Assembly (NCBI GenBank): GCA_041697335.1
Contig: JBGUGD010000009.1
Coordinates: forward strand, 93,415 to 157,414
Reading direction: 5' to 3'
DNA length: 64,000 nt
From: Vampirovibrionaceae bacterium NZW_1234
Lineage (GTDB): Bacteria; Cyanobacteriota; Vampirovibrionia; Vampirovibrionales; JAGQHJ01
Below the pieces are notes generated by a model that saw only the letters and a list, made by a program, of their open reading frames with translations, ran no database searches and was not told where the DNA came from. Position 1 is the stretch's first letter. Every line of letters begins with the position of its first letter. Of this stretch, positions 1 to 16,334 are shown piece after piece. The translations under genes and the position numbers were made by a program.

Positions 1-143
1 ATTTCAGCAGTCCAGTGAATATCTTAGTGATGTAGCCTACCCAAGGTTTAAGGATGAAATAAGCCGTTATTCATTCTTGTAATGAACAAAAAGAATTTTG
101 ATTACATTGGTTATTTACGGATAAGACACAGGAGACAATAAAA

Positions 144-665
144 ATGAGCGTTACTAGTGTTTTACTTTTCGGAACACCATTGGCAATTGGACAAGACCCA
201 AATACACCAAAGCGTCCAACTCAAACAGGCACGATTGACCCGGATGCAGGTCGTGATAGTAATCCAGTCGTTGGCCCGGGAACAACAGGGACACAAAACA
301 ATGTGTTTAAGCCTGGGCAGGTAAAAGTTGATGATAAACGTGGGACGGAGGTCACGGGTGCATCTTCCGGAAATTCGCCTCAAACGGTGTTTAAGCCAGG
401 TCAAGTAAAAGTAGATGACACGCGCGGGACCGAAGTTGTAAAAGCACCGGTCGTAAATGTCCCTGCACCAACGGCCCCAACACCTGCAGTGACGTACTAC
501 CAACCGGTAAAAACCACAGATCCCGATGATGAATTGGTTTATGATGATACTTGTGGTAATGACGTCTATTATACCCGTCGTCAATTGCGAGAGAAAGAGG
601 AAGCTATTCAGCGCGCACGCCCAAATGACACACCTCCAAGCTCTGATCCCTATGACAACTACTAA
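144..665 (+). CDS. Array protein 1: conserved head, 2x FKPGQVKVDDxRGTEV module, DDELxYxDxCGND-type tail
   Basis: SD-like AGGAG upstream; the first ~290 nt are nearly identical to 729..1250; motif shared with 9 downstream ORFs. Confidence 0.85.
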   Translation: MSVTSVLLFGTPLAIGQDPNTPKRPTQTGTIDPDAGRDSNPVVGPGTTGTQNNVFKPGQVKVDDKRGTEVTGASSGNSPQTVFKPGQVKVDDTRGTEVVKAPVVNVPAPTAPTPAVTYYQPVKTTDPDDELVYDDTCGNDVYYTRRQLREKEEAIQRARPNDTPPSSDPYDNY

Positions 666-728
666 CAGCTCATATAAAGAAAGACACACGTAAATTAAAT
701 TGATAATTCGTAGGAGGACAACGATATA

Positions 729-1250
729 ATGAGCGTTACGAGTGTTTTGCTATTTGGGACACAGCTCGCAATTGGACAAGACCCAAATACACCAAAGCGT
801 CCAACTCAAACAGGTACGGTTGACCCGGATGCAGGTCGTGATAGTAATCCAGTCGTTGGCCCGGGAACAACAGGGACACAAAACAATGTGTTTAAGCCTG
901 GGCATGTAAAAGTTGATGATAAACGTGGAACGGAGGTCACGGGTGCATCTTCCGGAAATTCACCTCAAATGGTGTTTAAGCCAGGTCAAGTAAAAGTAGA
1001 TGACACGCGCGGGACCGAAGTTCTGAAGACGCCAATTGGCGATACTCTGAGACCAACAAAGCCAACATCTGTGGTTAATAACTATCCACTGGTAATAACC
1101 ACAGATCCTGATGATGAATTGGATTATACTGACTCCTGTGGTAACGATATTTACTTTACTCGGCGTCAGGTACGTGAAAAATGGGAAGCTGTTCAACGGG
1201 CAAGAGCAAATAGCAGACCCTCAAGCTCTGAATCCTATGACGACAATTGA
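729..1250 (+). CDS. Array protein 2 (recent duplicate of protein 1)
   Basis: AGGAGG upstream; same length (173 aa) and homologous tail to 144..665. Confidence 0.85.
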   Translation: MSVTSVLLFGTQLAIGQDPNTPKRPTQTGTVDPDAGRDSNPVVGPGTTGTQNNVFKPGHVKVDDKRGTEVTGASSGNSPQMVFKPGQVKVDDTRGTEVLKTPIGDTLRPTKPTSVVNNYPLVITTDPDDELDYTDSCGNDIYFTRRQVREKWEAVQRARANSRPSSSESYDDN

Positions 1251-1317
1251 ATACTCAAGTAAGAGACGAAAATAACTTGAAGAAATTAATTGGATAGAAT
1301 ATGGAGTAAATTGGAAA

Positions 1318-1740
1318 ATGAGCTTTGGAACCATAGCAATGATGTCATTAACAACCACATTACCTTGGAAGTTTATTCCAGAAGATACGCCAAAGAGAGA
1401 AAGTAATGCCAATAAAATTGAAGATACCAGTGGCAATGGAACACAGACAACAGGATCGTCTTCTGGGGGTTCTTCTAACAACTATTTTAAACCAGGTCAA
1501 GGGAGAGTAGATGATACCCGCGGAACAGAAGTCGCGAAGACAGGTACTGCTGCAAAGCAACCATCATCGGCAGTATCAACGAGCAACAGCGAGTCTTTGT
1601 TTGCTGAAAAAGAAATTATGATTTTATGGGGAGTTAATATGAAGGTAGTTTATTTTAATGCTCCTATTAAAAGCGTTCCTTCTTCTACGGAGCAAAACCC
1701 TGAAATTCCTAAGTATCTTCGTGACTTACATGGCCTGTAA
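1318..1740 (+). CDS. Array protein 3: 1 module, unique tail
   Basis: MSFGTIAMM head, DTPKR, FKPGQGRVDDTRGTEV. Confidence 0.8.
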   Translation: MSFGTIAMMSLTTTLPWKFIPEDTPKRESNANKIEDTSGNGTQTTGSSSGGSSNNYFKPGQGRVDDTRGTEVAKTGTAAKQPSSAVSTSNSESLFAEKEIMILWGVNMKVVYFNAPIKSVPSSTEQNPEIPKYLRDLHGL

Positions 1741-1846
1741 ATATTCTTTTACCCAGTAGTAAGAGTTTTCTATTCTCTATTACCGATAACTACAATATAC
1801 AAGGTATGAATATCATTATTTCGCAAAACTAAGGAGGAATTGGACA

Positions 1847-2362
1847 GTGACATTTGGAACCATTGCAATGATGACACCTTGGAGTTTCGGTCAGGATCCG
1901 GATACGCCAAAAAAAACCAGTAATGCTAAAAATGTTGATGATTCTGGTGGCCTTGGCACCTATTTTGGAGGTAATTCAACCGTTAATCCTGGTGGAAGTA
2001 ACGCAACAAGTGTATTCAAGCCCGGTAAAGTCAAGGTTGATGATGCCCGGGGTACTGAAACGAAAGGGGCAACCCCTGGAGGAGGAGGTTCTAAGTCGGT
2101 ATTTAAACCTGGTCAAACAAAGGTTGATGATACTCGGGGGACTGAAGTGAAGACTCCGCCCGTGGTAGCTAAACCTGCAACTCCTTCTGAGGAAAAAAAG
2201 GAACCTTATAATCCTGGTTATCGATCCGAGTCAGAACCACCACCAGGCTACTACTGGGATTACAGTGACGTTGTTGCTGGCGGAGGGGGGCCTGATTTGA
2301 AACCTATTCCTGGGTATCGTCCTTCTGCACCTCCGCCTGAGTTTGATCCGAATGATTTTTAG
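1847..2362 (+). CDS. Array protein 4: 2 modules, PPxGYYWDxSD-type tail
   Basis: AAGGAGG plus GTG start; MTFGTIAMM head; tail homologous to 6640..7155. Confidence 0.85.
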   Translation: MTFGTIAMMTPWSFGQDPDTPKKTSNAKNVDDSGGLGTYFGGNSTVNPGGSNATSVFKPGKVKVDDARGTETKGATPGGGGSKSVFKPGQTKVDDTRGTEVKTPPVVAKPATPSEEKKEPYNPGYRSESEPPPGYYWDYSDVVAGGGGPDLKPIPGYRPSAPPPEFDPNDF

Positions 2363-2378
2363 TCATCTTCGCTAGCCT

Positions 2379-2424
2379 TAAAAGTGACAATGCAAGGTGT
2401 TTTGCCTTGCTTTTGTCACTTTTA
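2379..2424. terminator. Hairpin/intrinsic terminator after array protein 4
   Basis: taaaagtgaca...tgtcactttta inverted repeat. Confidence 0.6.
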
Positions 2425-2568
2425 ACTTTAATCCTGGTCTATAATAGCTATGCTTTATGCAATCTGTTTTTATAAGATGCATTGTTTTTTGCTATGAGAT
2501 TGAACATATTTTGTTCTGTTCTAGAAATAGAGTGCTATAAAGTCCTTGAACTTAATGAGCATAAGTAT

Positions 2569-2607
2569 TTACATTCTCACAACATTTCCGAATTACTTGT
2601 TTTAAAG
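2569..2607 (+). promoter_or_regulatory. Shared promoter-like motif (variant TTAC-N26-GTTTTAAA)
   Basis: Same TTAC-N26-GTTTT spacing as the copies at 3659, 4736, 5845 and 8267. Confidence 0.5.
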
Positions 2608-2665
2608 CAAATAATAGCTCGTTTTACAGATTGAGGGTAGTATCTAATCGCCTAAGTTAGGGGTT

Positions 2666-3562
2666 ATGAGTATGATTTATTTAAATATAGGAACTTGGAT
2701 GCCTACACTGGTGTCTGATCAAGAGAAGCAGAAACGTCATAGTTCGGCAAAAAATATTGATGACTCAAGTGGTTCTGATGCAAAGACCAGCGATAGAGGA
2801 GCACAATCTTCAGAGAAACCAAAAACGGCTTTTGGCCCTGGTAAAGTTAAAGTGGATGATAGTTCCGGGATGCAAAAAAAACAAGATGAAAAGAGGGCAA
2901 CTGATAAGACTAAAAACTATTTTCGGCCAGGAAAAGTGAAAGTTGACGATTCTCGTGGTACAGAGAAAAGTCAGACCAGCAAGGATGATAAGTCCAAAAG
3001 CTATTTTCGGCCAGGAAAAGTCAAAGTTGATGATTCACGTGGTACAGAAAATACAAAAAAAGCAGAGCCAAAGGTTGTTGTAAAGACAACAGAGGTTAAG
3101 GTTACAGAGCAAAAGGTTAAGGCTGTATTTGATACTTTGGAAAAGGTCAATTTTACTAATCTTTATGGTAAGCGCAGCGATCGGTTAGACCCAACCAAGA
3201 CGCCAAACCCCGATATGGTGATGGCACTGAAGGCACTAAAAGATGTTGGGTTTGATCCTGGTCTTCCCTATGATAAACAACCACCAGCTGCGCAAGAAAT
3301 GATTCGACGGCTCCGCGATAAATATCGTAACCAAGAACGCTCCATTGACGATGACACAACAGATTCGGTCTATAACCGGATGTCTAGGGAACATCGTAAA
3401 AGAACGACTGATGAGGAAATTCGTCGCATGCTTTATCGAATGTATTCCAGCCATACTTTACAAAGTGAACGTCGGGAAGCCGGCTTTGATACGGATTATT
3501 GGGGTAATCATCTAGATTTTATTCCAGATAAGCAGGTTCTGGGTTACCGGAGTAAATATTAA
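2666..3562 (+). CDS. Array protein 5: 3 modules, long charged tail
   Basis: FGPGKVKVDDSSG, 2x FRPGKVKVDDSRGTE. Confidence 0.85.
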   Translation: MSMIYLNIGTWMPTLVSDQEKQKRHSSAKNIDDSSGSDAKTSDRGAQSSEKPKTAFGPGKVKVDDSSGMQKKQDEKRATDKTKNYFRPGKVKVDDSRGTEKSQTSKDDKSKSYFRPGKVKVDDSRGTENTKKAEPKVVVKTTEVKVTEQKVKAVFDTLEKVNFTNLYGKRSDRLDPTKTPNPDMVMALKALKDVGFDPGLPYDKQPPAAQEMIRRLRDKYRNQERSIDDDTTDSVYNRMSREHRKRTTDEEIRRMLYRMYSSHTLQSERREAGFDTDYWGNHLDFIPDKQVLGYRSKY

Positions 3563-3658
3563 ACTTAATCCTGATTGCCGCTTGCAATGTACAGATTTGA
3601 TTTTGCTTAATAGTATATCTTTGTATGTGCAATGTATTTACTTTGTCGCAATATATGA

Positions 3659-3697
3659 TTACAATATGGCACGAAATGTCTTAATAAAGTTTTTATA
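3659..3697 (+). promoter_or_regulatory. Shared promoter-like motif TTAC..CACGA-N14-GTTTTTATA
   Basis: Fixed-spacing motif repeated upstream of multiple orphan genes. Confidence 0.65.
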
Positions 3698-3765
3698 ATT
3701 ATAGGTTTAATTAAGTGCCGAATTGGCAATGTGTTTAGGCAGTATAATTTTGAGGGACACTGGAC

Positions 3766-4569
3766 ATGGGATACGGAAATTTAATATCAAAAGTAGGTGC
3801 TTATGCGATAGGGCAGAGTGAAGTAACACCTAAATTACCAAGCTCTGCAGGTAAGATCTCAGATAGCAGTGGTTCTGAAATTGGGCTTGGTGGCGGCTCA
3901 TTTGAAAAGCCAAAAGTGCTGTTTAAGCCAGGGCTTGTTAAGGTAGATGATGTCCGTGGAACAGAAATTCCAACAGCTAAGGCACCTGAGCCAAAGGAGC
4001 CTGCTACTCCTCCAACACCGCCGGCGCAACCGACACGTTATTCCTCACAGGCTGAAATGCGTCGAGATTTTGACCAAGTCTTGGATAGACTGACTGCAGG
4101 TGCAAACTTAAAGGGAAGTAATGAGTTTCAAGGGAACCGGGGTGATCGAACTCGCTTTGTTCAGGCCGCTGGGGCATTAGAAAGTTTACAGCCCGGAGGT
4201 ACATTGAATGAAACAACACGTAGTAATTTGACGTATCTCGGCTTTACTAACGATGATATTGATCGGATGCAAACTGATGGCCGTTATCGTAATCTGACGC
4301 GTAGGATTTTAACCTATATCGACCAAAACTGGGGTGATAGTGGAACTAGCGGGGTTAATTATATAACTGATGATAATGGTAATGAGGCCAATTGTGGTGG
4401 ATGTATTTCAGATAATGACTTGTTAGGACTGCGTTATGGTGGTACATCTAATCCACCGTTATTCAATGATAGAGGCATATTGTTTTGGGACTCCAGCTAT
4501 AACTATAACGGCAACGCTGATAGACATCATAAGGCCCTGATTGATACTCTTCATAAAAATTGCCTTTAA
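3766..4569 (+). CDS. Array protein 6: 1 module, Pro linker, putative globular tail
   Basis: MGYGN head, PSSAGKISDSSGSE, FKPGLVKVDDVRGTE. Confidence 0.85.
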   Translation: MGYGNLISKVGAYAIGQSEVTPKLPSSAGKISDSSGSEIGLGGGSFEKPKVLFKPGLVKVDDVRGTEIPTAKAPEPKEPATPPTPPAQPTRYSSQAEMRRDFDQVLDRLTAGANLKGSNEFQGNRGDRTRFVQAAGALESLQPGGTLNETTRSNLTYLGFTNDDIDRMQTDGRYRNLTRRILTYIDQNWGDSGTSGVNYITDDNGNEANCGGCISDNDLLGLRYGGTSNPPLFNDRGILFWDSSYNYNGNADRHHKALIDTLHKNCL

Positions 4570-4578
4570 TATCGTATT

Positions 4579-4609
4579 ACTGGGTGAGCAATTCAATTGC
4601 TCACCCAGT
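4579..4609. terminator. Hairpin after array protein 6
   Basis: actgggtgagcaatt-c-aattgctcacccagt palindrome. Confidence 0.6.
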
Positions 4610-4735
4610 TCGTATCAGTCAAAATCAATAATAATAATAACTTGGCGGCTTTAATTCCACCAAGTCAAAACGGTGTGGCTCTGAGACTATATGAAAAAAC
4701 AGACTTTTAAGTCAGGTAAAATTGTAAAAAATTGC

Positions 4736-4774
4736 TTACGATTTCTCACAAAATTCCTTAAGAAAGTTTTTATA
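4736..4774 (+). promoter_or_regulatory. Shared promoter-like motif TTAC..CACAA-N14-GTTTTTATA
   Basis: ccttaagaaagtttttatatt is identical to the copy at 5865-5885. Confidence 0.7.
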
Positions 4775-4845
4775 TTAATAGACCCACACGATGATGTTTA
4801 TTAATTATGGCACTGTGGACAATAAGATTTTAGAGGACAAAGGAC

Positions 4846-5412
4846 ATGGGATTCGGAAATATTGCAATCATGACAGGTGCAATGGCCTTGGGCCAAAGTC
4901 CTGATACTCCGAGCCGGCCGAGTTCTGCCGGAAATATTAGTGACAGTAGCGGTTCGGAAGTCACATCTAGTGGCAGTGGCGCGAAGTCTACAGGAGCCCA
5001 ATCAGGTTCTCCATTTCGGCCAGGTCAGGTAAGAGTGGATGATAGCCGTGGTACAGAAGTAACATCTACTGGTGGACCTGGAGGCAAACCTACTGCGTTT
5101 AAACCGGGCCAAGTACGGGTCGATGATACTCGTGGAACCGAGGTCAGGAATAATAATAATCCTCCACCGGCAGTATTTACACCGCCGTCACCCCCTCCAA
5201 TAGTGGAGCGTCGGCTTATTTTGACTAACCAGAATTGTTGTATCGGTTGCCACCCGAGCGCACCTTCTTATCGGGGTGTTGCTAATCCAGGGTTTGGTTC
5301 TAATAGAGATATGCCAGACTTAAGCACATTCTTTAACCAATCTCGTCGTGGTGCTAGTCCATCACGCTTAACAGATGACGAAATAAGGGCGCTCTTGGCT
5401 CCAAAGCGTTAA
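4846..5412 (+). CDS. Array protein 7: 2 modules, Cys-containing tail (NCCIGCH)
   Basis: MGFGNIAIMT head; conserved modules. Confidence 0.85.
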   Translation: MGFGNIAIMTGAMALGQSPDTPSRPSSAGNISDSSGSEVTSSGSGAKSTGAQSGSPFRPGQVRVDDSRGTEVTSTGGPGGKPTAFKPGQVRVDDTRGTEVRNNNNPPPAVFTPPSPPPIVERRLILTNQNCCIGCHPSAPSYRGVANPGFGSNRDMPDLSTFFNQSRRGASPSRLTDDEIRALLAPKR

Positions 5413-5844
5413 TTATAGCTATTTCAGCTTTGAACGTTTGCCAAAATAACTTGTTTTTCACTCAAAATTATTAATGAAATTAGTTGAGCAAGAAGTTTTT
5501 CAATTAGATTGAAAAACTTCTTGTTAGTTCCGGCTGTATCTATAAAGTGTCCACGCATTTAACATTTCAGGTTATGAATTTTTGAGTAGTATTCAATTAA
5601 AGCTCCCCTTTAACTAATGCTTGTTCGAGTTTTCTAATTGATCCAGTTTTAAAGGGGTATTTTCTACGGGAAGAAATTCAATGTTCTATAAAAAAGTTCT
5701 CGCATTATTTCTAAAGTAAAGTGTTCTGTGCTGATGTTCGTTGCTAATTTAGCTTGCACTCAGGCCAATGTTTGCAGTTTAAGTATTGCTTTCTAGAGAG
5801 GATAACGTAAAGAGTTGATGCAATTTATGAATGTAAAGTTTGAG

Positions 5845-5883
5845 TTACAGAAAAGCATAAATTACCTTAAGAAAGTTTTTATA
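5845..5883 (+). promoter_or_regulatory. Shared promoter-like motif TTAC..CATAA-N14-GTTTTTATA
   Basis: Fixed-spacing motif. Confidence 0.7.
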
Positions 5884-5957
5884 TTTATATATACAAATAT
5901 GGCATAGGTTAATAAGACTAGGTTAATGGACAATAGGACTTATGGAGGTCTGTGGAC

Positions 5958-6593
5958 ATGGGATACGGAAATATTGCAATTATGACAAGTTCTTTGGCGA
6001 TGGGGCAAAATGCTGATACTCCCCGTCGTCCGAGCTCTGCTGGAAACATTAGTGACAGTAGTGGTTCGGAAGTCACGTCTGGTGGTGGCGGTGCACAATC
6101 TGCTGGAGGCCAATCAGGTTCTCCATTTCGGCCAGGCCAAGTAAGAGTGGATGATAGCCGCGGTACAGAAGTAACATCTACCGGTGGAGCTGGAGGCCAA
6201 TCAGGTTCTCCATTTCGGCCAGGTCAAGTTCGTGTAGATGATACTCGCGGTACAGAAAGAGCGAGTACTTCAGGTCGACAAGCTACTGTACCATCATCTA
6301 CTTTAACAACAACGCCTTCGTACTCTAGCTTCCCCAGTTATGGTGGCCCAGGCCCAGGTATGGTACCAGTGACTGTTGGTGGTTGGGGTCCTTATGGAGG
6401 AGGTCCTGCCGGAACACCAGGCATTGGTTCAGGCCCTCAAATTGTAGGTTATAGACCGGCCGGAGGCTACGGGGCCTATGGTGGTCCTGGTGGTGGTGGT
6501 TATACCGGCGGTGGCTACGGCTCTTATGGTGGTGGTGGCTATGGCTCCTCTGGTGGGGGGTATGGATCCTATGGCGGTGGCTTCCGTCGATAA
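5958..6593 (+). CDS. Array protein 8: 2 modules, Gly/Tyr-rich tail
   Basis: GGAGG upstream; ATG at 5958 (ggacATGgga context shared with paralogues) preferred over GTG 5952. Confidence 0.85.
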   Translation: MGYGNIAIMTSSLAMGQNADTPRRPSSAGNISDSSGSEVTSGGGGAQSAGGQSGSPFRPGQVRVDDSRGTEVTSTGGAGGQSGSPFRPGQVRVDDTRGTERASTSGRQATVPSSTLTTTPSYSSFPSYGGPGPGMVPVTVGGWGPYGGGPAGTPGIGSGPQIVGYRPAGGYGAYGGPGGGGYTGGGYGSYGGGGYGSSGGGYGSYGGGFRR

Positions 6594-6639
6594 ATGTTTA
6601 TTGATGATTTAGGCTTATGGACAATGGAGGACAATAGAT

Positions 6640-7155
6640 ATGGGATTTGGTAATCTCGCATTAATCACAAGTGCTTATGCGATGGGGCAAAGTCCTGATA
6701 CCCCACGCCGTCCTAGCTCTGCAGGAAATATTTCTGACAGTAGTGGAACAGAAATTGGTGGTGGCGGTAATGGACAGCAACCTGGGGCTGTTCCCGGGAA
6801 TCCTTTCCGACCTGGGCAAGTCCGAGTTGATGATACCCGTGGAACGGAGCGGCCTGGTCAAGGCGGACCCGGCGGAGTATCTGGAGGCGCATTTAGGCCA
6901 GGTCAGGTAAGAGTTGACGATACACGCGGTACTGAAAGAAGACCGCCTGCTACTGTACCAACCACACCGACTACTACCTATTCAAGCTCAAGCTCAAGTA
7001 CTAGCTCAGGAAGTGGTGAAGATTATAATAATCCACCTGCCGGATATTATTGGGATTTCAGTGACACTTGCGGTGGGCTGCCTACATTAAGACCCATCCA
7101 AGGGTATCGTCGTACACCTCCTCCAACTTACGATGAAGATTGGTGTAACGGATAA
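6640..7155 (+). CDS. Array protein 9: 2 modules, PPxGYYWDxSD-type tail
   Basis: GGAGG upstream; tail homologous to 1847..2362. Confidence 0.85.
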   Translation: MGFGNLALITSAYAMGQSPDTPRRPSSAGNISDSSGTEIGGGGNGQQPGAVPGNPFRPGQVRVDDTRGTERPGQGGPGGVSGGAFRPGQVRVDDTRGTERRPPATVPTTPTTTYSSSSSSTSSGSGEDYNNPPAGYYWDFSDTCGGLPTLRPIQGYRRTPPPTYDEDWCNG

Positions 7156-7348
7156 AATACTCACTCACTTCATAATAATCGAATGTCATTATATCTAGCC
7201 CAATGATTTTCAGCATTCAAACCATGCAACCTGGGGTGTTGTTCGTAATCATTGGGCTAGACTTATTTAGAGAGCATTGCACATTTAGACTCACTATATT
7301 GGACAAAACGTACAGGGTTAATTTCTAGAAATAGAAGGAAAATTTGCT

Positions 7349-7966
7349 ATGGGTTACACGACAATAATTGATAGAGCCGTTCTTAGAGCCATTGGACAAG
7401 ATGCAACCACGCCAAGACGACCAAGTGCTGCAGGAAATATTAATGATAATAGTGGTAGCGAGGTGAACTCTGGGAGTTTATTAATCCCTACAGGGGAGAC
7501 TTCTCAAAATGTTTTCCGACCTGGAAAAATTGCAGTGGATGACACTCGTGGAGTGGAAGTCAATAAAAATGCAGTTTCTGGTTTATCTAACAATTATTTC
7601 CGACCGGGGCAGGTAAAAGTAGATGATGAACGTGGAACGGAAGTCAATAAAAATGCAGTTTCTGGCTCATCTAACAATTATTTCCGACCGGGGCAGATAA
7701 AAGTAGATGACAAGCGTGGGACAGAGGTTGTGGTTTCACCTGCTCTGCAGCCAGTGTCATCTACTGGAGTTAATCATGCTCCAAATCTAAATGGAGTCCA
7801 ATTTACAAACCATGTGCCAGGAACATTTGGGTTTGGGGGGGCTCCTCCTGGCTCCTTCGGAGGCCCTCCATTTGGACCCTTCTATCCGGGCTTTGCTGGA
7901 AATCCACATGGTTTTCACGGATCATCTTATGGTGGAAGCTTCACTGGAGGCTCGGTATATCGCTAA
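7349..7966 (+). CDS. Array protein 10: 3 modules, Gly/Phe/Pro-rich tail
   Basis: AIGQDATTPRRPSAAGNINDNSGSEV head; 84-nt tandem duplication at ~7556-7723. Confidence 0.85.
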   Translation: MGYTTIIDRAVLRAIGQDATTPRRPSAAGNINDNSGSEVNSGSLLIPTGETSQNVFRPGKIAVDDTRGVEVNKNAVSGLSNNYFRPGQVKVDDERGTEVNKNAVSGSSNNYFRPGQIKVDDKRGTEVVVSPALQPVSSTGVNHAPNLNGVQFTNHVPGTFGFGGAPPGSFGGPPFGPFYPGFAGNPHGFHGSSYGGSFTGGSVYR

Positions 7967-8266
7967 ATTATGGTTTTCAGCTGACCTGTAAATATGCTAC
8001 TGAACTCAATCAGGTTAAGAGAACTAGCTACTTCTTGGTTTAAAATCCCGATAACAAAAGTTTTAGGTGGTTCTGACAGTATTGGGAGTGGATTATCATC
8101 CACTCCCTTAGCTTTTAAGACTTTTCTAAGTACTTCCTATCGATCTTTAAATAGTTATTAAAGAATGAGCTTTAAAGGAGTGTCCAGTATAAGCGTTTGC
8201 GTAGAAGCTGCATAAAATAGACTATGTATGATCAATTTTTAAAAAAACACTTTTTGAATCATTGTG

Positions 8267-8305
8267 TTACAAGCTATTAAAATTAAGAATTAATTAGTTT
8301 TTATA
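8267..8305 (+). promoter_or_regulatory. Shared promoter-like motif TTAC-N26-GTTTTTATA upstream of the long leader of 8620
   Basis: Fixed-spacing motif. Confidence 0.6.
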
Positions 8306-8619
8306 TATATGGGGAAATTCTGAAAAATAACAATACAGAGTGAATGACGAGAAATATTAGAGGGAAATAGTATGTATTCAGCAGGTTTAACTTTGATCGA
8401 TTTTAAAGGCGGCGTATTCTAACGCCTCCCTTTACATGGCAGCGTACTGTGCGTTTTTGCTTTGAAGTACGCTGCCCATATTTATTTTTCCAAATTGATT
8501 AAAATGCTCAGCGAGCTGCTGCACAGCACAGATAACGTGCTGGGTCTCAAGTTCGTAGGAAATCGAGATGAGCGAAACTGCGATAAAAAATTTGACACAC
8601 GAGGGGGGTACTCAAACTT

Positions 8620-11121
8620 ATGCCAATGATTGGAGTAAATCCTTATTACGATGGATCTGCCAACCGAACTTTCGGTGGGAATGAACCAAATCAGCCGTCA
8701 GCTCCAAGTTCGCCTTCCACTGGCTCCAACGCAAATTATGTAGATCAGGCCAGACAGGCTGAACTTCAAGAGCGTAATCGACGGTATAACGCTCGTGGAC
8801 AGTTCTATGAAGCCCAAAAGAAACGGGAAGAAAAGGGTTGGGCATGGTGGGCTAACCCGACTGTTGACATGGAAAGCCTGCAGAAACGCCAGAACGAGGA
8901 AGCACAGAATTTACGTAACCAGGCTCCAGAGGTTAAACCTCAGAAAACCGGGTGGCAAAAATTCTGGAGTGGTGTTAAGTGTGCTACTAACTTTGTGAAA
9001 GGTGCAACGGTTGGTTTTGTTAAGAAAACCTACCAAAGCATGTGCTGTGACGAGAACGGCAATTTTAGTTGGAAGAAAACTTTAACCTCTGCGGCAGTTG
9101 TTGGTGTTGCTGTCGCTGCCTGCGCAATACCCGGTGTCGGACCTGTTATTTCAGCAGGTTTATTGGCATATGGCTTAGGCTCTTCAGCCATTGCTGTTGC
9201 TCAAAACGCTGCTAAAGTTTATGACTTGTACAGCAAAGGCGAGTACGAAATGGCAGAAGCAGCTGGTTATGAGCTAGGGGTGGAAACCACCAATGCCGCA
9301 ATGTGTTTCGCCGGTGGTATGCAGGCCCTCAAGGCAATGAAAGCAGCTCGTGCTGCTCAGGCTGCTCAGGCTGCCAATCGAGCCACTTCAATTGCTAATC
9401 GGGCTGGAAAGCTTGCCAACTTAGCGGATGATGCCATTGCGATGTCTGACAAAGGCAAATTAATTGCAAGATTGCCTATTAAAGGTGGTGGCACAAAAGA
9501 ACTGGATGTTCTGAAAAATATTACACGTGCTGCAGACAAAGCAGATGATATGCTTCCGATGGTCACTCGTGGTACACGCTATGCCAGAAATGGTTCTAGT
9601 ATGGCCGATAAAGCCAAGTCTGCCGCAGAAGGCATGCGTAATTCGGCTGAAAGAGTTAAAGCTGCAGCTGACAAATTGAAAGATATGGATAAGCTGCGTA
9701 AAGCGCAACAAGAAGCACGTCAAGCTATGAAAGACTTGGCACCAAAACTGAAGGATCAAAGAAGTACCATCACTCGACTGGAATCGCAGCTTAAATCTGC
9801 TACGTCCAAGTCGCAAAGAAGAACTATTACCAAGCAATTGGAAACTGCTAAAACGCAGGCTTCACAGACCAAAGCTCAAATGCAGCAATTGGGTGGTAAG
9901 CTCAAAGAAGCCAAGGCACCTATGCGGGAAGTTAAAGATGCGCTGCGTGAATACCAGGCTCACGCCCGTGATTTTGCTAAGGTGGCTCGCAAGTCTTCGA
10001 ATCTGACCACACGATCCAATATGCAGTATTTGGCTCGCCAAAAGCAGGCAGGTTTTAGAGGTGGTTGGAAAAACCCGCTTAACTTGGTTGCAAGACCCTT
10101 GGCTCGCATTAAGAATGCCGGTATGGAAGTTCTTCGTGAAACCAAGCTCAGCATGGGCTTTAAAGTGAAGCCTCCTACAGGCACTGCTGAAGCTGCTAAG
10201 TCTGGCTGGAGATTGACCCGCTGGATGCCAAAACCCTGGAAATGGATGCGCAGCGGTAGCAAAATGGTCGATAAAATGACCAAGCCGAAGCCGCTCCGGG
10301 TTCCCGGTATTGATAAACCTAGAGGTTTCGATGCAATGAGTGCCGCTGAGAAAGCTGCCTTTAGACAACAACGGGCTGCACTCTATGATCAGGCTCGCAC
10401 GAATTTGACCGGTCGCAATGTTAAACTGGATCCTGTAAGACCGAAACCAGTCAGTACTAATCCAAGACCTACATCTCCGACTCCGGCGCCCAGCACAGTG
10501 GCTTCTCCGCCACCAGCACCTGCGGTCACTAATCCTGTTGCTCCGGTTGTTCGAGGAGGCCGTACCTTAACACCCAGTGAAGTAGCTCGTAATGCCAGAG
10601 TTCAGCAAGTGCGAGATGCAGTAGAAGTCGGTAAGCAATGGGTGTACAACAGAGCAACCAAAACCTGGAGTTGGATCTGGGGAGATAAAAACAAACCCAC
10701 TCAAATTGTGGGTGATACCCTTCCCAGAATCTTTACCAGCCCTAATTTGGCTACTCGTACCCAGGTTCGCTTGCCCTATGCAGTGCTTGCTGTCTCTGAA
10801 GGTCGTAACATGCTAGGTGTTGGAACCACCACGGATGAAATGATGGATCCCTTCCGGGCACCAAACGTGGAAAGATACGATCCTAACGCTGCTCGGGAAC
10901 AGGGTGACGATACTTCTGCTCCTGCAGGGATTCGTTACAGAAGCAATTACACGCCTGTTATCGAAGGAACTCCAGTTGCCACTGTTGGTGGAACATCTGT
11001 TCCTTATGGAACCTGGGTATCCTCTTACGATGATATGTATGGAAGTTACATTATGGACGATGTTCCAGGATCTTACACAGGAGGGCGAACTGCCGGTACC
11101 CGGTTCGCAACCAGTGGGTAA
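8620..11121 (+). CDS. 833-aa hypothetical protein: hydrophobic double helix (~aa 155-200), long Ala/Lys coiled coil, basic/Pro-rich C-terminal half
   Basis: GAGGGGG SD; long open frame; TLTSAAVVGVAVAACAIPGVGPVISAGLLAYGLGSSAIAVA segment. Confidence 0.85.
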   Translation: MPMIGVNPYYDGSANRTFGGNEPNQPSAPSSPSTGSNANYVDQARQAELQERNRRYNARGQFYEAQKKREEKGWAWWANPTVDMESLQKRQNEEAQNLRNQAPEVKPQKTGWQKFWSGVKCATNFVKGATVGFVKKTYQSMCCDENGNFSWKKTLTSAAVVGVAVAACAIPGVGPVISAGLLAYGLGSSAIAVAQNAAKVYDLYSKGEYEMAEAAGYELGVETTNAAMCFAGGMQALKAMKAARAAQAAQAANRATSIANRAGKLANLADDAIAMSDKGKLIARLPIKGGGTKELDVLKNITRAADKADDMLPMVTRGTRYARNGSSMADKAKSAAEGMRNSAERVKAAADKLKDMDKLRKAQQEARQAMKDLAPKLKDQRSTITRLESQLKSATSKSQRRTITKQLETAKTQASQTKAQMQQLGGKLKEAKAPMREVKDALREYQAHARDFAKVARKSSNLTTRSNMQYLARQKQAGFRGGWKNPLNLVARPLARIKNAGMEVLRETKLSMGFKVKPPTGTAEAAKSGWRLTRWMPKPWKWMRSGSKMVDKMTKPKPLRVPGIDKPRGFDAMSAAEKAAFRQQRAALYDQARTNLTGRNVKLDPVRPKPVSTNPRPTSPTPAPSTVASPPPAPAVTNPVAPVVRGGRTLTPSEVARNARVQQVRDAVEVGKQWVYNRATKTWSWIWGDKNKPTQIVGDTLPRIFTSPNLATRTQVRLPYAVLAVSEGRNMLGVGTTTDEMMDPFRAPNVERYDPNAAREQGDDTSAPAGIRYRSNYTPVIEGTPVATVGGTSVPYGTWVSSYDDMYGSYIMDDVPGSYTGGRTAGTRFATSG

Positions 11122-11129
11122 CTTGATAC

Positions 11130-11162
11130 AAAAAGCCTCATCCCAACGATGAGGCTTTTTTA
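11130..11162. terminator. Bidirectional intrinsic terminator between convergent genes
   Basis: aaaaagcctcatc-ccaac-gatgaggcttttt. Confidence 0.85.
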
Positions 11163-12338
11163 GTTCACATTGAGCGCTATTCGTGTATCAAATTGACCAC
11201 GTACTCGTTGATCCAAATCCTGAATTGTACTTAGGGAAGGACAAGAAGTGAGATCTTTTGCATGCAGGTTCATTACTTGTTCAATAAGACGAGGAATATC
11301 CATAAAGCCGATCCTGCCTTTCAAGAACGCATCCACGGCCAGCTCATCGGCGGCGTTTAGGACCACGGGCATGGTGCCGCCGATTTTGGCGGCTTGGCGG
11401 GCCAGGGCCAGGCACGGAAATTTATCGGGATCTGCTGGGTAAAGTTCAAGTTGGGAGAGCTGGGTCAGATCCAGGTGGAGGTCGGAATCAGTGGCTGACC
11501 AGCGTTCGGGGAAGGTGAGTCCGTATTGCAGGGGGACCCGCATATCCGGCTGGCCGAGTTGAGCAATAATCGAGCCATCGTTAAAGGCGACGGCGCTGTG
11601 AATGATGCTTTGAGGGTGAACCACGACCTCAATCTGATTCAGGGGCATTTGAAATAGATGATGGGCTTCGATAATTTCCAGGCCTTTGTTCATCATGGTG
11701 GCTGAATCAATGGTGACTTTGGGGCCCATTTGCCAGTTGGGGTGCTGCAAGGCTTGTTGCGGAGTGACGGAGGCCAAGGCGTCGGGAGAAATACTTCGGA
11801 ACGGGCCGCCAGAGGCGGTGAGATAGAGCTTGCGGACTTCTGTTTGAGGGGACTGGCATCCTTGCAGGCATTGAAAAATAGCAGAATGCTCACTATCCAG
11901 CGGGACAATCTGATCCAGATACGGGGCGACCAGATGCCCGGCAACGACAAATGTTTCCTTGTTCGCTGTAAGGACTTTCTTCCCGGCCTCAAGGGCTCGA
12001 AGGGTCGGCAGTAATCCGGCAAATCCGGTAATGCCCACGACAACGATATCCACATCTTCATGGGTGACAATATCACAAAGGCCGGTTTCTCCCACAGCGA
12101 TGAAGGGCAGGGGGTACTTCGAGTCGTGAGCAAGCTTATCGCGAAAGTCACCCAGAGCATTCTCATCTGCCACACAAACAAGCTGTGGTGAAAAGGCTTG
12201 AACCTGGTCTGCCAAAAGGGACGTATTTCGTCCCGCTGCGAGTGCCACAACCTGAAACGCCTGATGATAATGGGCCAGGATACTGAGTGTTTGTGTTCCG
12301 ATTGACCCCGTGGAGCCAAGAACGGCGACTCGTTTCAA
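11160..12338 (-). CDS. dxr: 1-deoxy-D-xylulose 5-phosphate reductoisomerase
   Basis: LGSTGSIG, ANKE, DSEHSAIFQ, TASGGPFR, HPNWxMGPKVTIDSATMMNKGLEIIEA motifs. Confidence 0.97.
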   Translation of the reverse strand: MKRVAVLGSTGSIGTQTLSILAHYHQAFQVVALAAGRNTSLLADQVQAFSPQLVCVADENALGDFRDKLAHDSKYPLPFIAVGETGLCDIVTHEDVDIVVVGITGFAGLLPTLRALEAGKKVLTANKETFVVAGHLVAPYLDQIVPLDSEHSAIFQCLQGCQSPQTEVRKLYLTASGGPFRSISPDALASVTPQQALQHPNWQMGPKVTIDSATMMNKGLEIIEAHHLFQMPLNQIEVVVHPQSIIHSAVAFNDGSIIAQLGQPDMRVPLQYGLTFPERWSATDSDLHLDLTQLSQLELYPADPDKFPCLALARQAAKIGGTMPVVLNAADELAVDAFLKGRIGFMDIPRLIEQVMNLHAKDLTSCPSLSTIQDLDQRVRGQFDTRIALNVN

Positions 12339-12356
12339 GGAAAGGTCCTCTTCAGC

Positions 12357-12569
12357 CTAGAGCTTGGACATCGCACCGCATGCGGTGCAGACATACTCGG
12401 GCTCGCCCCAGGAGTTCAGGCCCCGATAGACCATATTCTCACCACAGTGGCATTGCACGGTATCCTTGTTGGCAGCAATGCCTTTGGCATTTTCACATTG
12501 CGGGTTCATGCAGCGAGTACCGGTTTCCGTCTTGAGGATTCGGCCGTTACACAAAGTACATCTATCCAT
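12357..12569 (-). CDS. Small Cys-rich double zinc-ribbon protein
   Basis: GGAGG before ATG 12569; CTLC, CMNPQC, CHC, CTAC; co-oriented 18 nt upstream of dxr. Confidence 0.7.
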   Translation of the reverse strand: MDRCTLCNGRILKTETGTRCMNPQCENAKGIAANKDTVQCHCGENMVYRGLNSWGEPEYVCTACGAMSKL

Positions 12570-12672: not shown

Positions 12673-13239
12673 TTAAGCAGGAGGATTCTCTAAGGCTTGC
12701 ACGTTGCTCACTTCTCCTGCCACACGTGTGCCATCGCCCATTAAAATGCGTGTTGATGGGGGGAGTTGGCGTCTGATTTGAGTATAGAGGGCGTTAATCG
12801 CTTTGATAGTTTTTGCATTTTGGTGCGTATCGGACCCGCTGAAGCCGGATTGTATCTTGCCATTGAAAGACACATCGACATAGTCCTTGAATGCACGAGC
12901 CACACGACTGTCCAAGAACGTTTCAACAACCGAGTCCAGTACATCGGGTACGAGCAGATCAATCCGGTGCGGGCTGACACGGCTATAAAACGCGAGCGCT
13001 GTGGGGGGCAGTAAGTCAGGCGTTTCAGTTAATGTTTGGCTCACCACATCTCGGCTTTCATCCACAATAGCTTTGGTAATGGTATGCACATACTTCTCGG
13101 CCGCAAAAAGATTGGTGGTATCTGGGCCACCGCCACGGCGTTGGAACTTTTGAAAGCCGGGTCGGGTCACATCGTATTTTGAATCCAGTCTGACCTGGAA
13201 GTGGGAACCAAAACGGAGTGAAGTCGGGGTCAGTGTCAT
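12673..13239 (-). CDS. Hypothetical protein with N-terminal PTSLRFG motif
   Basis: 188-aa ORF; N-terminus resembles that of neighbour 13417..14007. Confidence 0.7.
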   Translation of the reverse strand: MTLTPTSLRFGSHFQVRLDSKYDVTRPGFQKFQRRGGGPDTTNLFAAEKYVHTITKAIVDESRDVVSQTLTETPDLLPPTALAFYSRVSPHRIDLLVPDVLDSVVETFLDSRVARAFKDYVDVSFNGKIQSGFSGSDTHQNAKTIKAINALYTQIRRQLPPSTRILMGDGTRVAGEVSNVQALENPPA

Positions 13240-13416: not shown

Positions 13417-14007
13417 TTATGAGCGACCTTGGAAAATACTCTCCGGGGTTTTCAAGTACACACGTCCCCGCAGTTTATAGTTTTCCAGATGTTCCCGAGC
13501 ATAGCGTTCGGCATCTTCCCATTGGCGGGGTGACAACTTGTCTTTCAGGCTGTTCAAGTGACCTTTGGCCTCAGGAACACCTTCTGAAGCGGCCAGGAGC
13601 ATCAGGCCAACATAGGGAACCTTGTGGTGGGGCAGGCGATCCATGAGGGCGCCCATAATGTCCTCACCCAATCGAAGGCGTTTCACAAATTGATAAAAAC
13701 GTTTCGGACTCGACCGTTCATCCGGTTGATCTAGCATGAACCGAGCCAATTGGTACCGTGCTTCAGGAAAATCTGGCTCTTTGGCCAGTCCTTCCAACAT
13801 GGCTTTGGCCTTTTCCAGATCACGCAGTTTCGGATTAATGGGGCCATGCGCAAATGCTTGGCCGGTTTCATACATAATGGCTTCTGACAGTCGGCGTTGA
13901 TTCGGGGTGCTTTGCTGTTCTACCGTCGCCGTCGTGTCGTCACCGCCATAAAGGCGCAGATAAGGACGATCACCGCCAAAGCGTAAAGACGAAGGAGGAA
14001 TGTGCAT
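13417..14007 (-). CDS. Hypothetical protein with N-terminal PSSLRFG motif and Sel1/TPR-like helices
   Basis: EARYQLARF and LAASEGVPEAKGHLNSLKDKLSPRQWEDAERYARE resemble the C-terminal helices of Sel1-repeat proteins. Confidence 0.7.
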   Translation of the reverse strand: MHIPPSSLRFGGDRPYLRLYGGDDTTATVEQQSTPNQRRLSEAIMYETGQAFAHGPINPKLRDLEKAKAMLEGLAKEPDFPEARYQLARFMLDQPDERSSPKRFYQFVKRLRLGEDIMGALMDRLPHHKVPYVGLMLLAASEGVPEAKGHLNSLKDKLSPRQWEDAERYAREHLENYKLRGRVYLKTPESIFQGRS

Positions 14008-14727: not shown

Positions 14728-16170
14728 ATGAAAGAATTTGAATTTTTATTACCCCTGTATATGGATTTAAGTGTCTCGGGTTCAAGTGCAGCCTCGGGTG
14801 CATCCAATGTTGAGGCCCCCAAACGCAAGAAGCCCGAAGAGTTGCAGCAAACAACGGATTCTGTGGCAGAGTTGCCGGAATCGGAAACGGATGATGCGTC
14901 AAAAGTATCAGAAAGTTCTGCCCAAATGCCGACAGGCGACTTTGACGATGCTATGGGCGATTTCGAAGAGGTCAGTTTAAAAGACTCAGCTGCACCCGAG
15001 GATGATACGACTGAAGTTAGTGATACCAGTGGTACGCCCGAGGATGATACCACGGAAGTCAGTGATACCAGTGGCACGCCAGAAGATGACACAACGGAAG
15101 TAAAAGACACCAGTGGCACTCCGGAAGATGATACCACCGAAGTGAAAGACACGGGCAAACCGCCTGCTAAGCCAGAAGAAAAGGACGATACGGCCCGAGC
15201 TGCCGAAAAAAAGGATAAACCTGCTACCAAGCCTGATGCAAAAGGTGGTAAGTTGGATCCCGAAAAATTACCAACGTTTAAAGATATGAAGGGGGCGCCT
15301 CCGGAAGCTCGTGATTTAACCGATCAGAAAATTGATGAAAACAACGTTGGCGATGCCGCTAAAATGGCAAAAGACAAGGGTGTCGGTTTTAAAGGCGATG
15401 CTAAGGAAGTGGTTGCAAGAGCTACAGAGATGGTAAAAGCCGGTATTAAGAAAAACGAACAGCTTTTAGCCGCTAAAGGTGGTGGGGCTGGTAAGGATAC
15501 AGCCAAACCGTCTGGTGATAATGCAGGTGGTCTTGGCAAAGATGGCGCCTCTGCCAAAGATGGTGGCGGTGGAATCGGAAGTAATGCTGGCGGAGAACCC
15601 GTTCGTTTCCCTCGTGAATTCTGGGGTGCCGGGCCAGACGCGGAAAATATCAAATCCCAGTTGGAGCAACAAGTTGGACCGCTGGTTGATCAATGTAATA
15701 AACTGGCGGATCAGGTTGACGGGGGCCAAGGTGCTAAAGGTAATGATAAAAAACCTGAAAACAAAGAGAAAGCCGGTGGCGGTGAAGGTGCGCCTCCAAC
15801 GAAAGAAGCCAAGGGTAAAGAAGGCACCGGTGGTAAAGAAACCAAGCCCGCAGCCAAAGAACCCAGTCCATTCGCTCGGCGGACGGATCTTAAGCCCGGT
15901 GAAAAACAGCCCTCTGTTGAAGACACGGCACGCCGCTTAAGAACGGAAGATCCCTCTGGTAAAAAACTCAATGAAGCTCTGGATGGTTTGAAAAAAGAAG
16001 ATATTAATGGATTTAACCCCTTCAATAACGATTTGCCAAACCTCCAGCGATTATTACGGCAACGTTTACGAGATCTTCAAGCCAATCCCACGGCGGAAAA
16101 CCAGAAATTAATTGAACAAACTCGACAGAACCTTCGAGAAATAGATAATCGAATGCGTTCGGTTGCCTAG
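14728..16170 (+). CDS. Acidic low-complexity protein A (paralogue of 17779..19023)
   Basis: GGGAGG upstream; core PTFK..DKGVGFKGD..NEQLL..GGGGIG..P..FW aligns to protein C. Confidence 0.85.
   Translation: MKEFEFLLPLYMDLSVSGSSAASGASNVEAPKRKKPEELQQTTDSVAELPESETDDASKVSESSAQMPTGDFDDAMGDFEEVSLKDSAAPEDDTTEVSDTSGTPEDDTTEVSDTSGTPEDDTTEVKDTSGTPEDDTTEVKDTGKPPAKPEEKDDTARAAEKKDKPATKPDAKGGKLDPEKLPTFKDMKGAPPEARDLTDQKIDENNVGDAAKMAKDKGVGFKGDAKEVVARATEMVKAGIKKNEQLLAAKGGGAGKDTAKPSGDNAGGLGKDGASAKDGGGGIGSNAGGEPVRFPREFWGAGPDAENIKSQLEQQVGPLVDQCNKLADQVDGGQGAKGNDKKPENKEKAGGGEGAPPTKEAKGKEGTGGKETKPAAKEPSPFARRTDLKPGEKQPSVEDTARRLRTEDPSGKKLNEALDGLKKEDINGFNPFNNDLPNLQRLLRQRLRDLQANPTAENQKLIEQTRQNLREIDNRMRSVA
14995..15156 (+). 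repeat. 4x 42-nt coding repeat (PEDDTTEV[SK]DTSGT)
   Basis: Visible in both translation and DNA, with synonymous differences between units. Confidence 0.9.
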
Positions 16171-16215
16171 TTGTTCAACAGTCAATGGAAATTATGAATG
16201 TGAAACAGGTTTTCA

Positions 16216-16278
16216 ACCTAGCGTAACTGTCGTAAACACTTACGAGACAACCCCCGACGCAAGTCGGGGGCTTTTTTT
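16216..16278 (+). ncRNA. Conserved 3'-UTR element (34 nt) plus terminator; candidate antisense/sRNA, copy 1
   Basis: acctagcgtaactgtcgtaaacacttacgagaca is identical to 17267-17300 and complementary to 17742-17767; followed by cccccgac-gcaa-gtcggggg and a T tract. Confidence 0.6.
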
Positions 16279-16334
16279 AGCGTTCTTTAGACTCTTTTTG
16301 GAAAACTTAAAAGACCCTTAAACTCACATCAAAT

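Follow-up and report, generated by a model that had tools for sequence, protein, structure and literature searches.

The tandem array and its proteins

The 64,000-nucleotide stretch of DNA analysed here (the window; positions 93415-157414 of contig C9 in the source genome, G000) begins inside a tandem array of 12 co-oriented paralogues which carry 24 canonical copies of a short motif, here called the module, and which make up a single locus of the genome. Judging from the sequence, the N-terminal handle shared by these proteins is likely a common address-and-docking label to which differing C-terminal tails are attached. The source genome comprises 3.70 Mb in 41 contigs and is 94.75% complete; the reaction-centre gene PF00124 was not found in it, and the host is an uncultured, apparently non-photosynthetic relative of cyanobacteria. 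An earlier note, made from the letters of the window, had described ten such genes with 20 modules and had supposed that the array might continue leftwards. The list of open reading frames (ORFs) confirms the ten genes, all on the + strand, and their 20 modules (2, 2, 1, 2, 3, 1, 2, 2, 2 and 3 per gene), and two further paralogues are indeed present to the left, at C9:91699-92514 and C9:92615-93496. Beyond paralogue 1 lies an unrelated 896-aa gene, which marks the left boundary of the array; the complete series from paralogue 1 to 12 thus holds 2, 2, 2, 2, 1, 2, 3, 1, 2, 2, 2 and 3 modules.

All members follow one layout, in which a 16-residue N-terminus is followed by a G-Q-x-P-x-T-P-[KR]-R-P stretch, a degenerate module (module 0), one to three canonical modules, a mostly Pro/Thr-rich spacer and the tail. 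The 16 N-terminal residues are without Lys or Arg in 10 of the 12 members and without Asp or Glu in 11, and their best 10-residue Kyte-Doolittle mean ranges from 0.99 to 2.38. A putative cleavage-site context, A-x-G followed by Q17, is seen in 8/12, with S-F-G|Q in one more. The TP[KR] element falls at residues 20-24 in all 12 proteins, and at residue 21 in 10 of them.

The canonical module, F[KR]PGxVxVDDxRGTE, is 15 residues long; F1, P3, G4, V8 and G13 are invariant across the 24 copies, and D9, D10, R12 and E15 are nearly invariant. The first module starts at residues 53-57, the second at 83-86 and the third at 112-114, a period of 28-30 residues. The degenerate module proposed in the earlier note (SAGNISDSSGSE) stands: module 0 reads RPSSAGNISDSSGSE in its best-kept copies, spans 15 residues, has [IV]xD[ST]xG[ST]E in common with the canonical module, and sits one 29-residue period ahead of module 1. 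The linkers between modules measure 13-15 residues, and their description as Gly/Ser linkers is correct for most genes, where they are Gly/Ser/Thr-rich, but not for genes 7 and 12, where they are rich in Lys, Asp and Asn. A linker that is constant in length and free in sequence suggests a partner with fixed spacing. The spacer after the last module is rich in Pro, Thr and Val in most members, and the tails comprise 69-200 residues.

Neither the modules nor the heads recur elsewhere in the genome. A six-frame scan of the whole genome with the module core as a regular expression gave 22 matches, all at this locus, and a slightly wider pattern gave 24. A 20-column module profile gave 40.4-53.3 bits for the 24 copies (E 1e-9 to 1e-13 per genome) and had no further match in the genome. 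With a 42-column head profile the 12 genes came out at E 1e-17 to 1e-22, and the best of the remaining matches in the source genome and four genomes of the same family at E 0.6-0.9. These scores show that the pattern of the array is not due to chance.

Individual genes and their tails

All features given in this section lie on the + strand, and coordinates are those of the window unless a contig is named. Paralogue 1 (C9:91699-92514, wholly left of the window; 271 aa) and paralogue 2 (C9:92615-93496, the 3' end being window positions 1-82; 293 aa) have two modules each and end in DUF4214 tails (Pfam E 7.5e-25 and 2.1e-18, respectively). In both tails the DUF4214 (PF13946) match consists of two stretches, with scores of 87.2 and 66.6 bits against a gathering cut-off of 23.2. 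DUF4214 is mostly seen in extracellular multidomain proteins. Its only other match in the genome is weak and partial (24.5 bits), in an ORF with an R-F-[GS] leader, a class of N-terminus described below.

Paralogues 3 (144-665, modules 306-350 and 390-434) and 4 (729-1250, modules 891-935 and 975-1019) both encode 173 aa and share the repeat D5, which is 94% identical over 300 nt; the 5' part of gene 4 is near-identical to that of gene 3, and its tail has diverged from the acidic/aromatic tail of gene 3, which contains one Cys and is homologous to it. Paralogue 5 (1318-1740, 140 aa) has a divergent head, one module (1486-1530) and a short hydrophobic tail; a frameshifted second module was looked for in this gene and not found. 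Paralogue 6 (1847-2362, 171 aa) has a GTG start, modules at 2015-2059 and 2102-2146, and a Pro/Tyr-rich tail (PPxGYYWDxSD...) homologous to that of paralogue 11. Paralogue 7 (2666-3562, 298 aa) has three modules, a degenerate one at 2831-2875 (FGPG...SSGMQ) and two more at 2921-2965 and 3005-3049, ahead of a helical, charged tail in which a DUF4214-like stretch is discernible by eye only. Paralogue 8 (3766-4569, 267 aa) carries a single module (3922-3966) and a 200-aa tail whose fold was not assigned, an atlas look-up giving an uninformative 0.78 to DUF3879 clusters.

Paralogue 9 (4846-5412, 188 aa; modules 5014-5058 and 5098-5142) has a tail (5143-5412) with CIGCH, a CxxCH motif, a later M-P and a terminal LTDDEIRALL, which by eye resembles a small c-type cytochrome. 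An atlas feature search returned cytochrome c clusters at 0.87, which is a lead only. The candidate was rejected as unsupported: the tail has no Pfam match at E <= 10, is not among the PF13442 matches of the genome at E <= 10, is missed at E <= 1000 by a hidden Markov model (HMM) built from 24 cytochrome domains of the order, and reaches an hhalign probability of 25.5%, compared with up to 28% for 30 shuffles.

Paralogue 10 runs from 5952 (GTG, 213 aa) or 5958 (ATG, 211 aa) to 6593, the ATG with its upstream GGAGG being the likelier start, and has modules at 6126-6170 and 6213-6257 and a Gly/Tyr-rich tail with 37% Gly. Paralogue 11 (6640-7155, 171 aa) has modules at 6805-6849 and 6892-6936, a Ser/Thr spacer and a tail homologous to tail 6. 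Paralogue 12 (7349-7966, 205 aa) has modules at 7514-7558, 7598-7642 and 7682-7726 and a Gly/Phe/Pro-rich tail; the tails of 10 and 12 are both Gly/aromatic-rich. The earlier note had called the tails hypervariable, which is overstated: most are unrelated to one another, but three pairs are homologous by BLASTP, namely 1 and 2 (E 3e-39), 3 and 4 (1.5e-29), and 6 and 11 (4e-11).

A 49-nt element (repeat D8) lies upstream of genes 8, 9 and 10 and is a candidate promoter or operator. Its first copy (3656-3704) is situated about 60-110 nt ahead of the gene 8 start, the second (4733-4781, before gene 9) is 78% identical to the first, and the third (5842-5890, before gene 10) is 69% identical to it. 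Terminator-like hairpins follow gene 6 (2392-2410) and the last array gene (8084-8107, 10 pairs); both come from a consensus scan only, and the overall number of hairpins in that scan does not exceed that of shuffled sequence. GGAG/GGAGG-type ribosome-binding sites precede all 12 starts, and no Rfam family matched in window positions 1-12500. In gene 10, contigs from 2 of 4 sequencing runs join 6101 to 6189, so that 87 nt, one linker-plus-module unit, are dropped. This may reflect a one-module allele or the collapse of a 35-nt identical repeat by the assembler; as 35 bases are ambiguous and k-mer collapse is possible, the skip was not counted as copy-number variation.

Selection and concerted evolution

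The observation in the earlier note that module residues are conserved while third codon positions vary holds, each of the invariant F, P, G, V and G residues being encoded by 2-4 different codons. In 276 pooled module pairs the proportion of synonymous differences (pS) is 0.770, which is saturated, the proportion of nonsynonymous differences (pN) is 0.136, and pN/pS is 0.18. The note had taken a lack of purifying selection on the module residues as a sign against its own proposal; such selection is present at this ratio. Across nine gene pairs other than 3/4, pN is 0.02-0.16 in modules, 0.16-0.64 in linkers and 0.41-0.56 in tails, and over all pairwise region comparisons the module values span 0.01-0.16, with linkers and tails reaching up to about 0.4-0.6.

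Pair 3/4 is different, with a pS of 0.04-0.05 in modules and linkers compared with 0.58 in the tail, which indicates recent gene conversion of the 5' part. Neighbouring heads are alike, with 96% identity for 3-4, 75% for 9-10 and 48% for 5-6. The heads of 6 and 11 are closest to 5 (48%) and to 9 and 10 (62-63%), respectively, despite the homologous tails of these two genes. The likeness of heads among neighbours, together with homologous tails on different handle subgroups, argues that the handle evolves in concert while tails evolve or move independently. The constant-handle, variable-cargo architecture put forward in the earlier note is therefore supported by the fixed geometry, by strong purifying selection on modules as opposed to free linkers and tails, by the predicted disorder of the handle (see below) and by the concerted 5' parts.

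The same figures bear on whether the genes function at all, as the array could be an assembly artefact or a set of decaying or never-expressed ORFs. This explanation draws on the single metagenome-assembled genome, on the low word depth of the supporting contigs (~1-6) and on the outlying base composition described below, and is scarcely credible when set against 12/12 open frames with ribosome-binding sites and a module pN/pS of 0.18 at saturated pS. Independent short contigs from four of the 12 runs that contain the locus (all from one sample, possibly the source sample) also agree with the window, 83 of 86 being at least 99% identical to it.

The array has a G+C content at third codon positions (GC3) of 0.29-0.37, whereas the median over 1884 long ORFs is 0.56 and only 1.7% of these are at or below 0.37. 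The flanking genes are also low (0.35 for the 896-aa gene and 0.40 for an 833-aa gene on the other side), together forming a compositional island at G000:C9:88741-104532, and the array looks like an accessory, possibly acquired, island.

Predicted structure of the handle

A model of paralogue 1 was built with AlphaFold2 from the 12-sequence alignment. In it, every 10-residue block of residues 1-150 has a mean predicted local distance difference test (pLDDT) score of 59 or less and no secondary structure is predicted, whereas the DUF4214 tail (residues 151-270) is confidently helical at pLDDT 81-94; a single-sequence model of paralogue 8 was unusable (pLDDT 44). The handle alone looks intrinsically disordered in this model, which is expected for short linear motifs that fold on binding.

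Two of the rival explanations may be taken up here. In one, the proteins are self-assembling subunits of a matrix or fibre, the module being an amphipathic beta-hairpin (QVKVD / TEV) that stacks between molecules to form a gel or fibre decorated with the tails. The alternation of hydrophobic and charged residues in V-K-V-D, followed by a D-x-R-G turn and T-E-V, would suit such a hairpin, as would one to three modules per chain on flexible linkers, the Gly/Tyr- or Gly/Phe-rich nature of some tails, and the collagen-like (GAS/GTS)n repeats in the adjacent 896-aa gene. However, the model contains no strands in the handle, and the repeats of functional amyloids such as curli and Fap do not need a constant linker length; we consider self-assembly rather improbable. 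In the other, which we hold to be slightly more doubtful still, the proteins are cytoplasmic, intrinsically disordered adaptors whose modules would attach to a polymer or oligomer in the cytoplasm, much as tau/MAP repeats do to microtubules, the N-terminus being a membrane-binding amphipathic segment. A conserved core with a variable inter-repeat of constant length is found in those repeats as well, a basic n-region is absent from the array proteins, and heads 8 and 12 appear amphipathic, not hydrophobic throughout. Exported proteins are nevertheless the more typical carriers of Pro/Thr spacers, DUF4214 tails and small Cys-bearing tails, and no cytoskeletal gene is found nearby.

Search for relatives

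The search for further members with an HMM, suggested in the earlier note, recovered proteins of the source genome only. A head-plus-module profile run against 1,835,955,588 representative sequences matched 11 proteins, all from this genome; 10 of these were looked up exactly and all 10 are on the array's own contig, and one cluster also includes a shorter variant of paralogue 7 from a 943-bp JGI contig. The handle profile matched none of 40 relatives, and the module had no true match in any of 48 other genomes of the order. A partial module match in one of these genomes (G043) is due to chance, as it sits in the N-terminus of an ORF that by eye resembles a Rossmann-type oxidoreductase. Scanning genome contigs with a back-translated pattern gave 30 matches, none of which was confirmed, and a scan of metagenome contigs gave two weak tblastn matches that were read as chance, being GC-rich, off-frame stretches with no family-like ORF.

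The note had also reasoned that its proposal would fall if the module belonged to a characterised repeat family. No such family was found in Pfam, NCBIfam, PHROGs, PADLOC or the sequences of the PDB. Pfam and NCBIfam searches with all members, and Pfam searches with the tails alone, gave chance-level matches apart from DUF4214 in tails 1 and 2; PHROGs and PADLOC profiles gave no family for any of the 12 at E <= 0.01; and neither paralogue 8 nor the module profile had a match at E <= 10 among PDB sequences. Tail 9 in a word-based protein search, and the module strings in a text search of a collection of papers, likewise gave no match. None of the databases searched holds a relative, and the sequence family is new; analogues of its design principle are known in dockerins, type III effector N-termini and PE/PPE proteins.

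Genomic neighbourhood

The 896-aa protein encoded directly upstream of the array on the same strand (G000:C9:88741-91431) contains four blocks of (GAS/GTS)n hexapeptides (Pfam Collagen, E 8.5e-27), each preceded by INYDDFYAVP.APTPVGSS, and matches collagen-like PHROGs of phage tail fibres; its C-terminal half, which is helical, was matched in none of 48 other genomes of the order. Further upstream, again on the same strand, is a 399-aa protein (G000:C9:87249-88448) from a small family limited to this taxonomic family and present in 3 of 49 genomes of the order, with two genes in G003:C52 and others in G004:C115 and C49. Its N-terminus is conserved (MG[LF]SSLAV..Y.ID...N..YQQK), its centre is variable (0-300 residues) and its C-terminus is a coiled coil with an invariant FKNNYA end. 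The layout of this family is flagellin- or axial-protein-like, and its genes have PF03692 genes and homologues of the 833-aa protein as neighbours. Heads 8-11 begin with nine residues (MG[FY]GN[IL]A[IL][IM]) that bear some likeness to the N-terminus of this family, but the likeness is undetectable at profile level and was not relied on.

Downstream of the array, the 833-aa gene (8620-11121, + strand) encodes a hydrophobic hairpin and a coiled coil; it is given as context only. In the relatives G003, G002 and G004 (3 of 4 same-family genomes), its homologues lie beside a pair of CxxCxxCC genes and/or the 399-aa family, which indicates that the array and the 896-aa gene sit inside an otherwise conserved neighbourhood. 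Around dxr, synteny with relatives is not conserved; within about 10 kb of dxr, two same-family genomes also have tandem arrays of small lineage-specific proteins, namely four paralogues with R-F-[SA] leaders at G003:C78:10425-12896 and three Gly/Cys/Lys-rich proteins at about 19800-22000 of G001:C98.

In the source genome, two CxxCxxCC (PF03692) genes are found on the same strand 4-5 kb ahead of the array. In a further rival explanation, the modules would be sites of modification instead of docking, the proteins being precursors that receive cross-links between Lys/Thr and Asp/Glu side chains, as in ribosomally synthesized and post-translationally modified peptides (RiPPs), or Lys methylation. 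The conserved K, T, D and E positions of the module would provide the side chains, and PF03692, to which the two upstream genes belong, includes the flagellin lysine methylase FliB. However, RiPP precursors do not usually continue for 69-200 residues beyond their cores, as these proteins do, and enzymes that act on a core do not require constant module spacing. A search for an ATP-grasp macrocyclase in the 18 kb upstream and 33 kb of the window found only PF13549, within a CoA-ligase-type protein with CoA-binding domains (27637-29841). The explanation is very unlikely. The surroundings of the array, including the sequence left of the window that the earlier note had advised inspecting, hold no RiPP enzyme, sheath, transposase or obvious chaperone, and the contractile-injection sheath PF04984 was likewise not found.

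With regard to export machinery, the genome has two FlhA and two FlhB paralogues (C2:99188-102335, C32:11558-13534, C29:178739-179761), with a second fliF-fliG-fliH-flhA-fliI/flgB-flgC cluster on contig C32; FlhB2 has NPIH where the NPTH autocleavage motif is expected. All 21 genomes of the order that were examined (the source genome and relatives G001-G020) have two FlhA. Four T2SSE-type ATPases are also present, none of them linked to the locus.

These gates underlie the main rival explanation, which we regard as somewhat unlikely, that the array encodes cargo resembling type III effectors. Here the N-terminus would be a non-cleaved, uncharged signal, the modules would be gate or chaperone sites of one of the two flagellar-type export gates, and the tails would be secreted, possibly towards prey. 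The N-termini are uncharged, with many Ser, Thr, Ile and Met residues, and are followed at a constant distance of more than 30 residues by the first Phe-led motif, a geometry that recalls the dual signal of early flagellar subunits described in PMC8983047. The duplication of FlhA and FlhB, the second flagellar gene cluster and the presence of two FlhA throughout the genomes examined would supply a route. Two modules, as in 8/12 members, would by analogy suit a dimeric chaperone, and a common N-terminus ahead of unrelated C-termini is reminiscent of terminal reassortment among type III effectors. The gate recognition motif has the consensus Fxxx-hydrophobic. The module is far richer in information than this and does not follow it, the residue at Phe+4 being Q, K or H in 23/24 modules and L in one. 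In addition, the tails are not enzyme- or toxin-like, both flagellar clusters are on other contigs with no genomic link to the array, and the two gates are order-wide whereas the family occurs in one genome.

Several other features of these genomes were recorded. In a nearly complete relative, the second fliF-fliG-fliH-flhA cluster is directly preceded by four large tandem paralogues of 562-676 aa (G008:C5:2318807-2328021), three of which start with MAI[LS][PH]SIITSQ. Leaders ending in R-F-G or R-F-S, such as MTLTPTSLRFG and MHIPPSSLRFG, are common throughout the source genome; a crude scan of the first 45 residues found R-F-[GS] in 415 open frames of at least 120 codons, shadow ORFs included, with examples in the window at 12673-13239 (-), 13417-14007 (-) and 23586-25379 (+). 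The same search of the first 45 residues found R-F-G or R-F-S in none of the 12 paralogues. Window positions 14728-19023 hold three orphan genes (480, 224 and 425 aa) that encode acidic, low-complexity proteins rich in Gly, Ala, Ser and Asn with no Pfam family, and GAS-type repeats are seen again in the 425-aa product.

Proposed function

The reading that we favour, tentatively, is that the array encodes a shared export-and-docking handle by which the differing tails would all be anchored to the same partner at the envelope or cell surface. Export from the cytoplasm would be the task of the head, and the evenly spaced motifs, as short linear motifs or beta-hairpins, would each occupy one site of this single partner, an oligomer or a periodic structure. 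From there the spacer would hold out the tails (DUF4214, Gly/Tyr-rich, Pro/aromatic or Cys-bearing), so that one anchoring system could display a varied set of surface or matrix proteins. Constant spacing, constraint on both charged and hydrophobic module residues, and predicted disorder all suggest that each module binds one site of a partner of fixed geometry. The nature of spacer and tail argues for display instead of catalysis; as the tails are mostly short, of low complexity or DUF4214, with no recognisable enzyme or toxin, they fit surface or structural subunits better than effectors. A location outside the cytoplasm is weakly hinted at by the uncharged hydrophobic N-terminus, A-x-G|Q in 8/12, the Pro/Thr spacers and the DUF4214 tails, and by the occurrence of the lone other DUF4214 match on an ORF with an R-F-[GS] leader.

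Several points weigh against anchoring of this kind. The positively charged n-region of a classical Sec signal is lacking, with no Lys or Arg at residues 2-16 of 10/12 members, and members 8 and 12 have K or D/R inside the hydrophobic stretch; the statement of the earlier note that no Sec signal is visible is right as regards the n-region, and less so as regards the hydrophobic N-terminus and the putative A-x-G|Q site. The cytochrome c reading of tail 9, which would put one member in the periplasm, failed every profile test and is rejected as unsupported. Constant spacing would be just as natural in a segment wrapped around a secretion chaperone or gate. As the family is found in one genome only, neither co-occurrence nor covariation can point to a partner, and the very low GC3 may mean that the island was acquired recently and that the partner is foreign to this genome. 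Lastly, the 12 sequencing runs that contain the locus are DNA runs labelled as hot-springs or microbial-mat metagenomes, with no RNA run among them.

A bolder version, for which we would claim a rather low probability, is that predatory relatives of cyanobacteria may use the handle as a new code for secretion and docking. This code, made up of an uncharged N-terminal signal and a series of regularly spaced Phe-led motifs, would be read by a dedicated chaperone or by the second flagellar-type gate of the order. In that case the twelve genes would amount to an interchangeable arsenal of adhesive or prey-contact proteins destined for secretion, with tails swapped onto one handle that evolves in concert.

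If the handle does anchor its tails on a common partner, as we favour, the array would be a compact natural handle-plus-cargo system built from a 15-residue linear motif instead of a folded domain, from a little-studied Vampirovibrionales-like lineage many of whose proteins have non-classical N-terminal tags. Identification of whatever reads the motif would reveal the way in which proteins are addressed or anchored in this lineage and could provide a very small docking tag, although the significance is limited by a family known from one metagenome-assembled genome only.

Comparison with known systems

Within the genome itself, the handle has a parallel in the R-F-[GS] leader class, in which unrelated proteins likewise carry an N-terminal tag that contains a Phe-Gly element and does not look like a Sec signal. 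The two differ in that R-F-[GS] is absent from all 12 paralogues and that the array head matches nothing else in five genomes.

Early flagellar subunits, as described by Bryant et al. (2022, eLife, PMC8983047), have small hydrophobic residues at an unstructured N-terminus and, at least 26-30 residues further on, a gate recognition motif by which they dock on FlhBc. The array proteins resemble this signal as it is outlined there: I, L, V, M, A and F are abundant at residues 3-16, which are uncharged in 10/12, the Phe-containing motif at 53-57 satisfies the distance, and the machinery is present twice in the genome. Unlike that signal, the array motif is charge-rich, repeated and 15 residues long, and 23/24 copies depart from the consensus given above; nor are the array proteins axial components of a flagellum.

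Salmonella effectors of the SifA/SseJ/SspH type share a conserved N-terminal translocation domain, and type III effector families in general, through recombination-driven terminal reassortment, place a constant N-terminal secretion or chaperone region on unrelated C-termini, as is seen here. The array genes differ from them in being tandem at one locus, in having a motif-based and repeated handle, and in having tails that are not enzyme-like. The mycobacterial PE/PPE proteins, which are exported by type VII secretion, likewise form a large paralogous family with a conserved N-terminus and varied C-termini, some of them Gly-rich; however, they belong to an unrelated phylum, show no sequence similarity, and have folded helical N-terminal domains of 110-180 residues.

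The repeats of tau, MAP2 and MAP4 are disordered, have about 30 residues with a conserved core and an inter-repeat of constant length, and bind successive sites of a periodic polymer. The handle is comparable to these in its tandem repeats, predicted to be disordered, its period of about 30 residues and its variable inter-repeat of constant length, but the motif is unrelated, and the tau-type proteins are eukaryotic and cytoplasmic.

Dockerins (PF00404) of cellulosomal enzymes bind the cohesins of scaffoldins. They have no sequence relation to the handle, for which there is no PF00404 match (no Pfam family at E <= 1 beyond chance level), and no cohesin-like partner is known for the array proteins. 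A dockerin is also a folded, Ca-binding domain of 70 residues, whereas the handle is N-terminal, predicted to be disordered, and made of one to three 15-residue units on flexible linkers of 13-15 residues. If the handle does dock, the two systems are nonetheless alike in design, as both would have a short, duplicated docking handle, a Pro/Thr-rich linker, many cargo domains and many paralogous carriers per genome.

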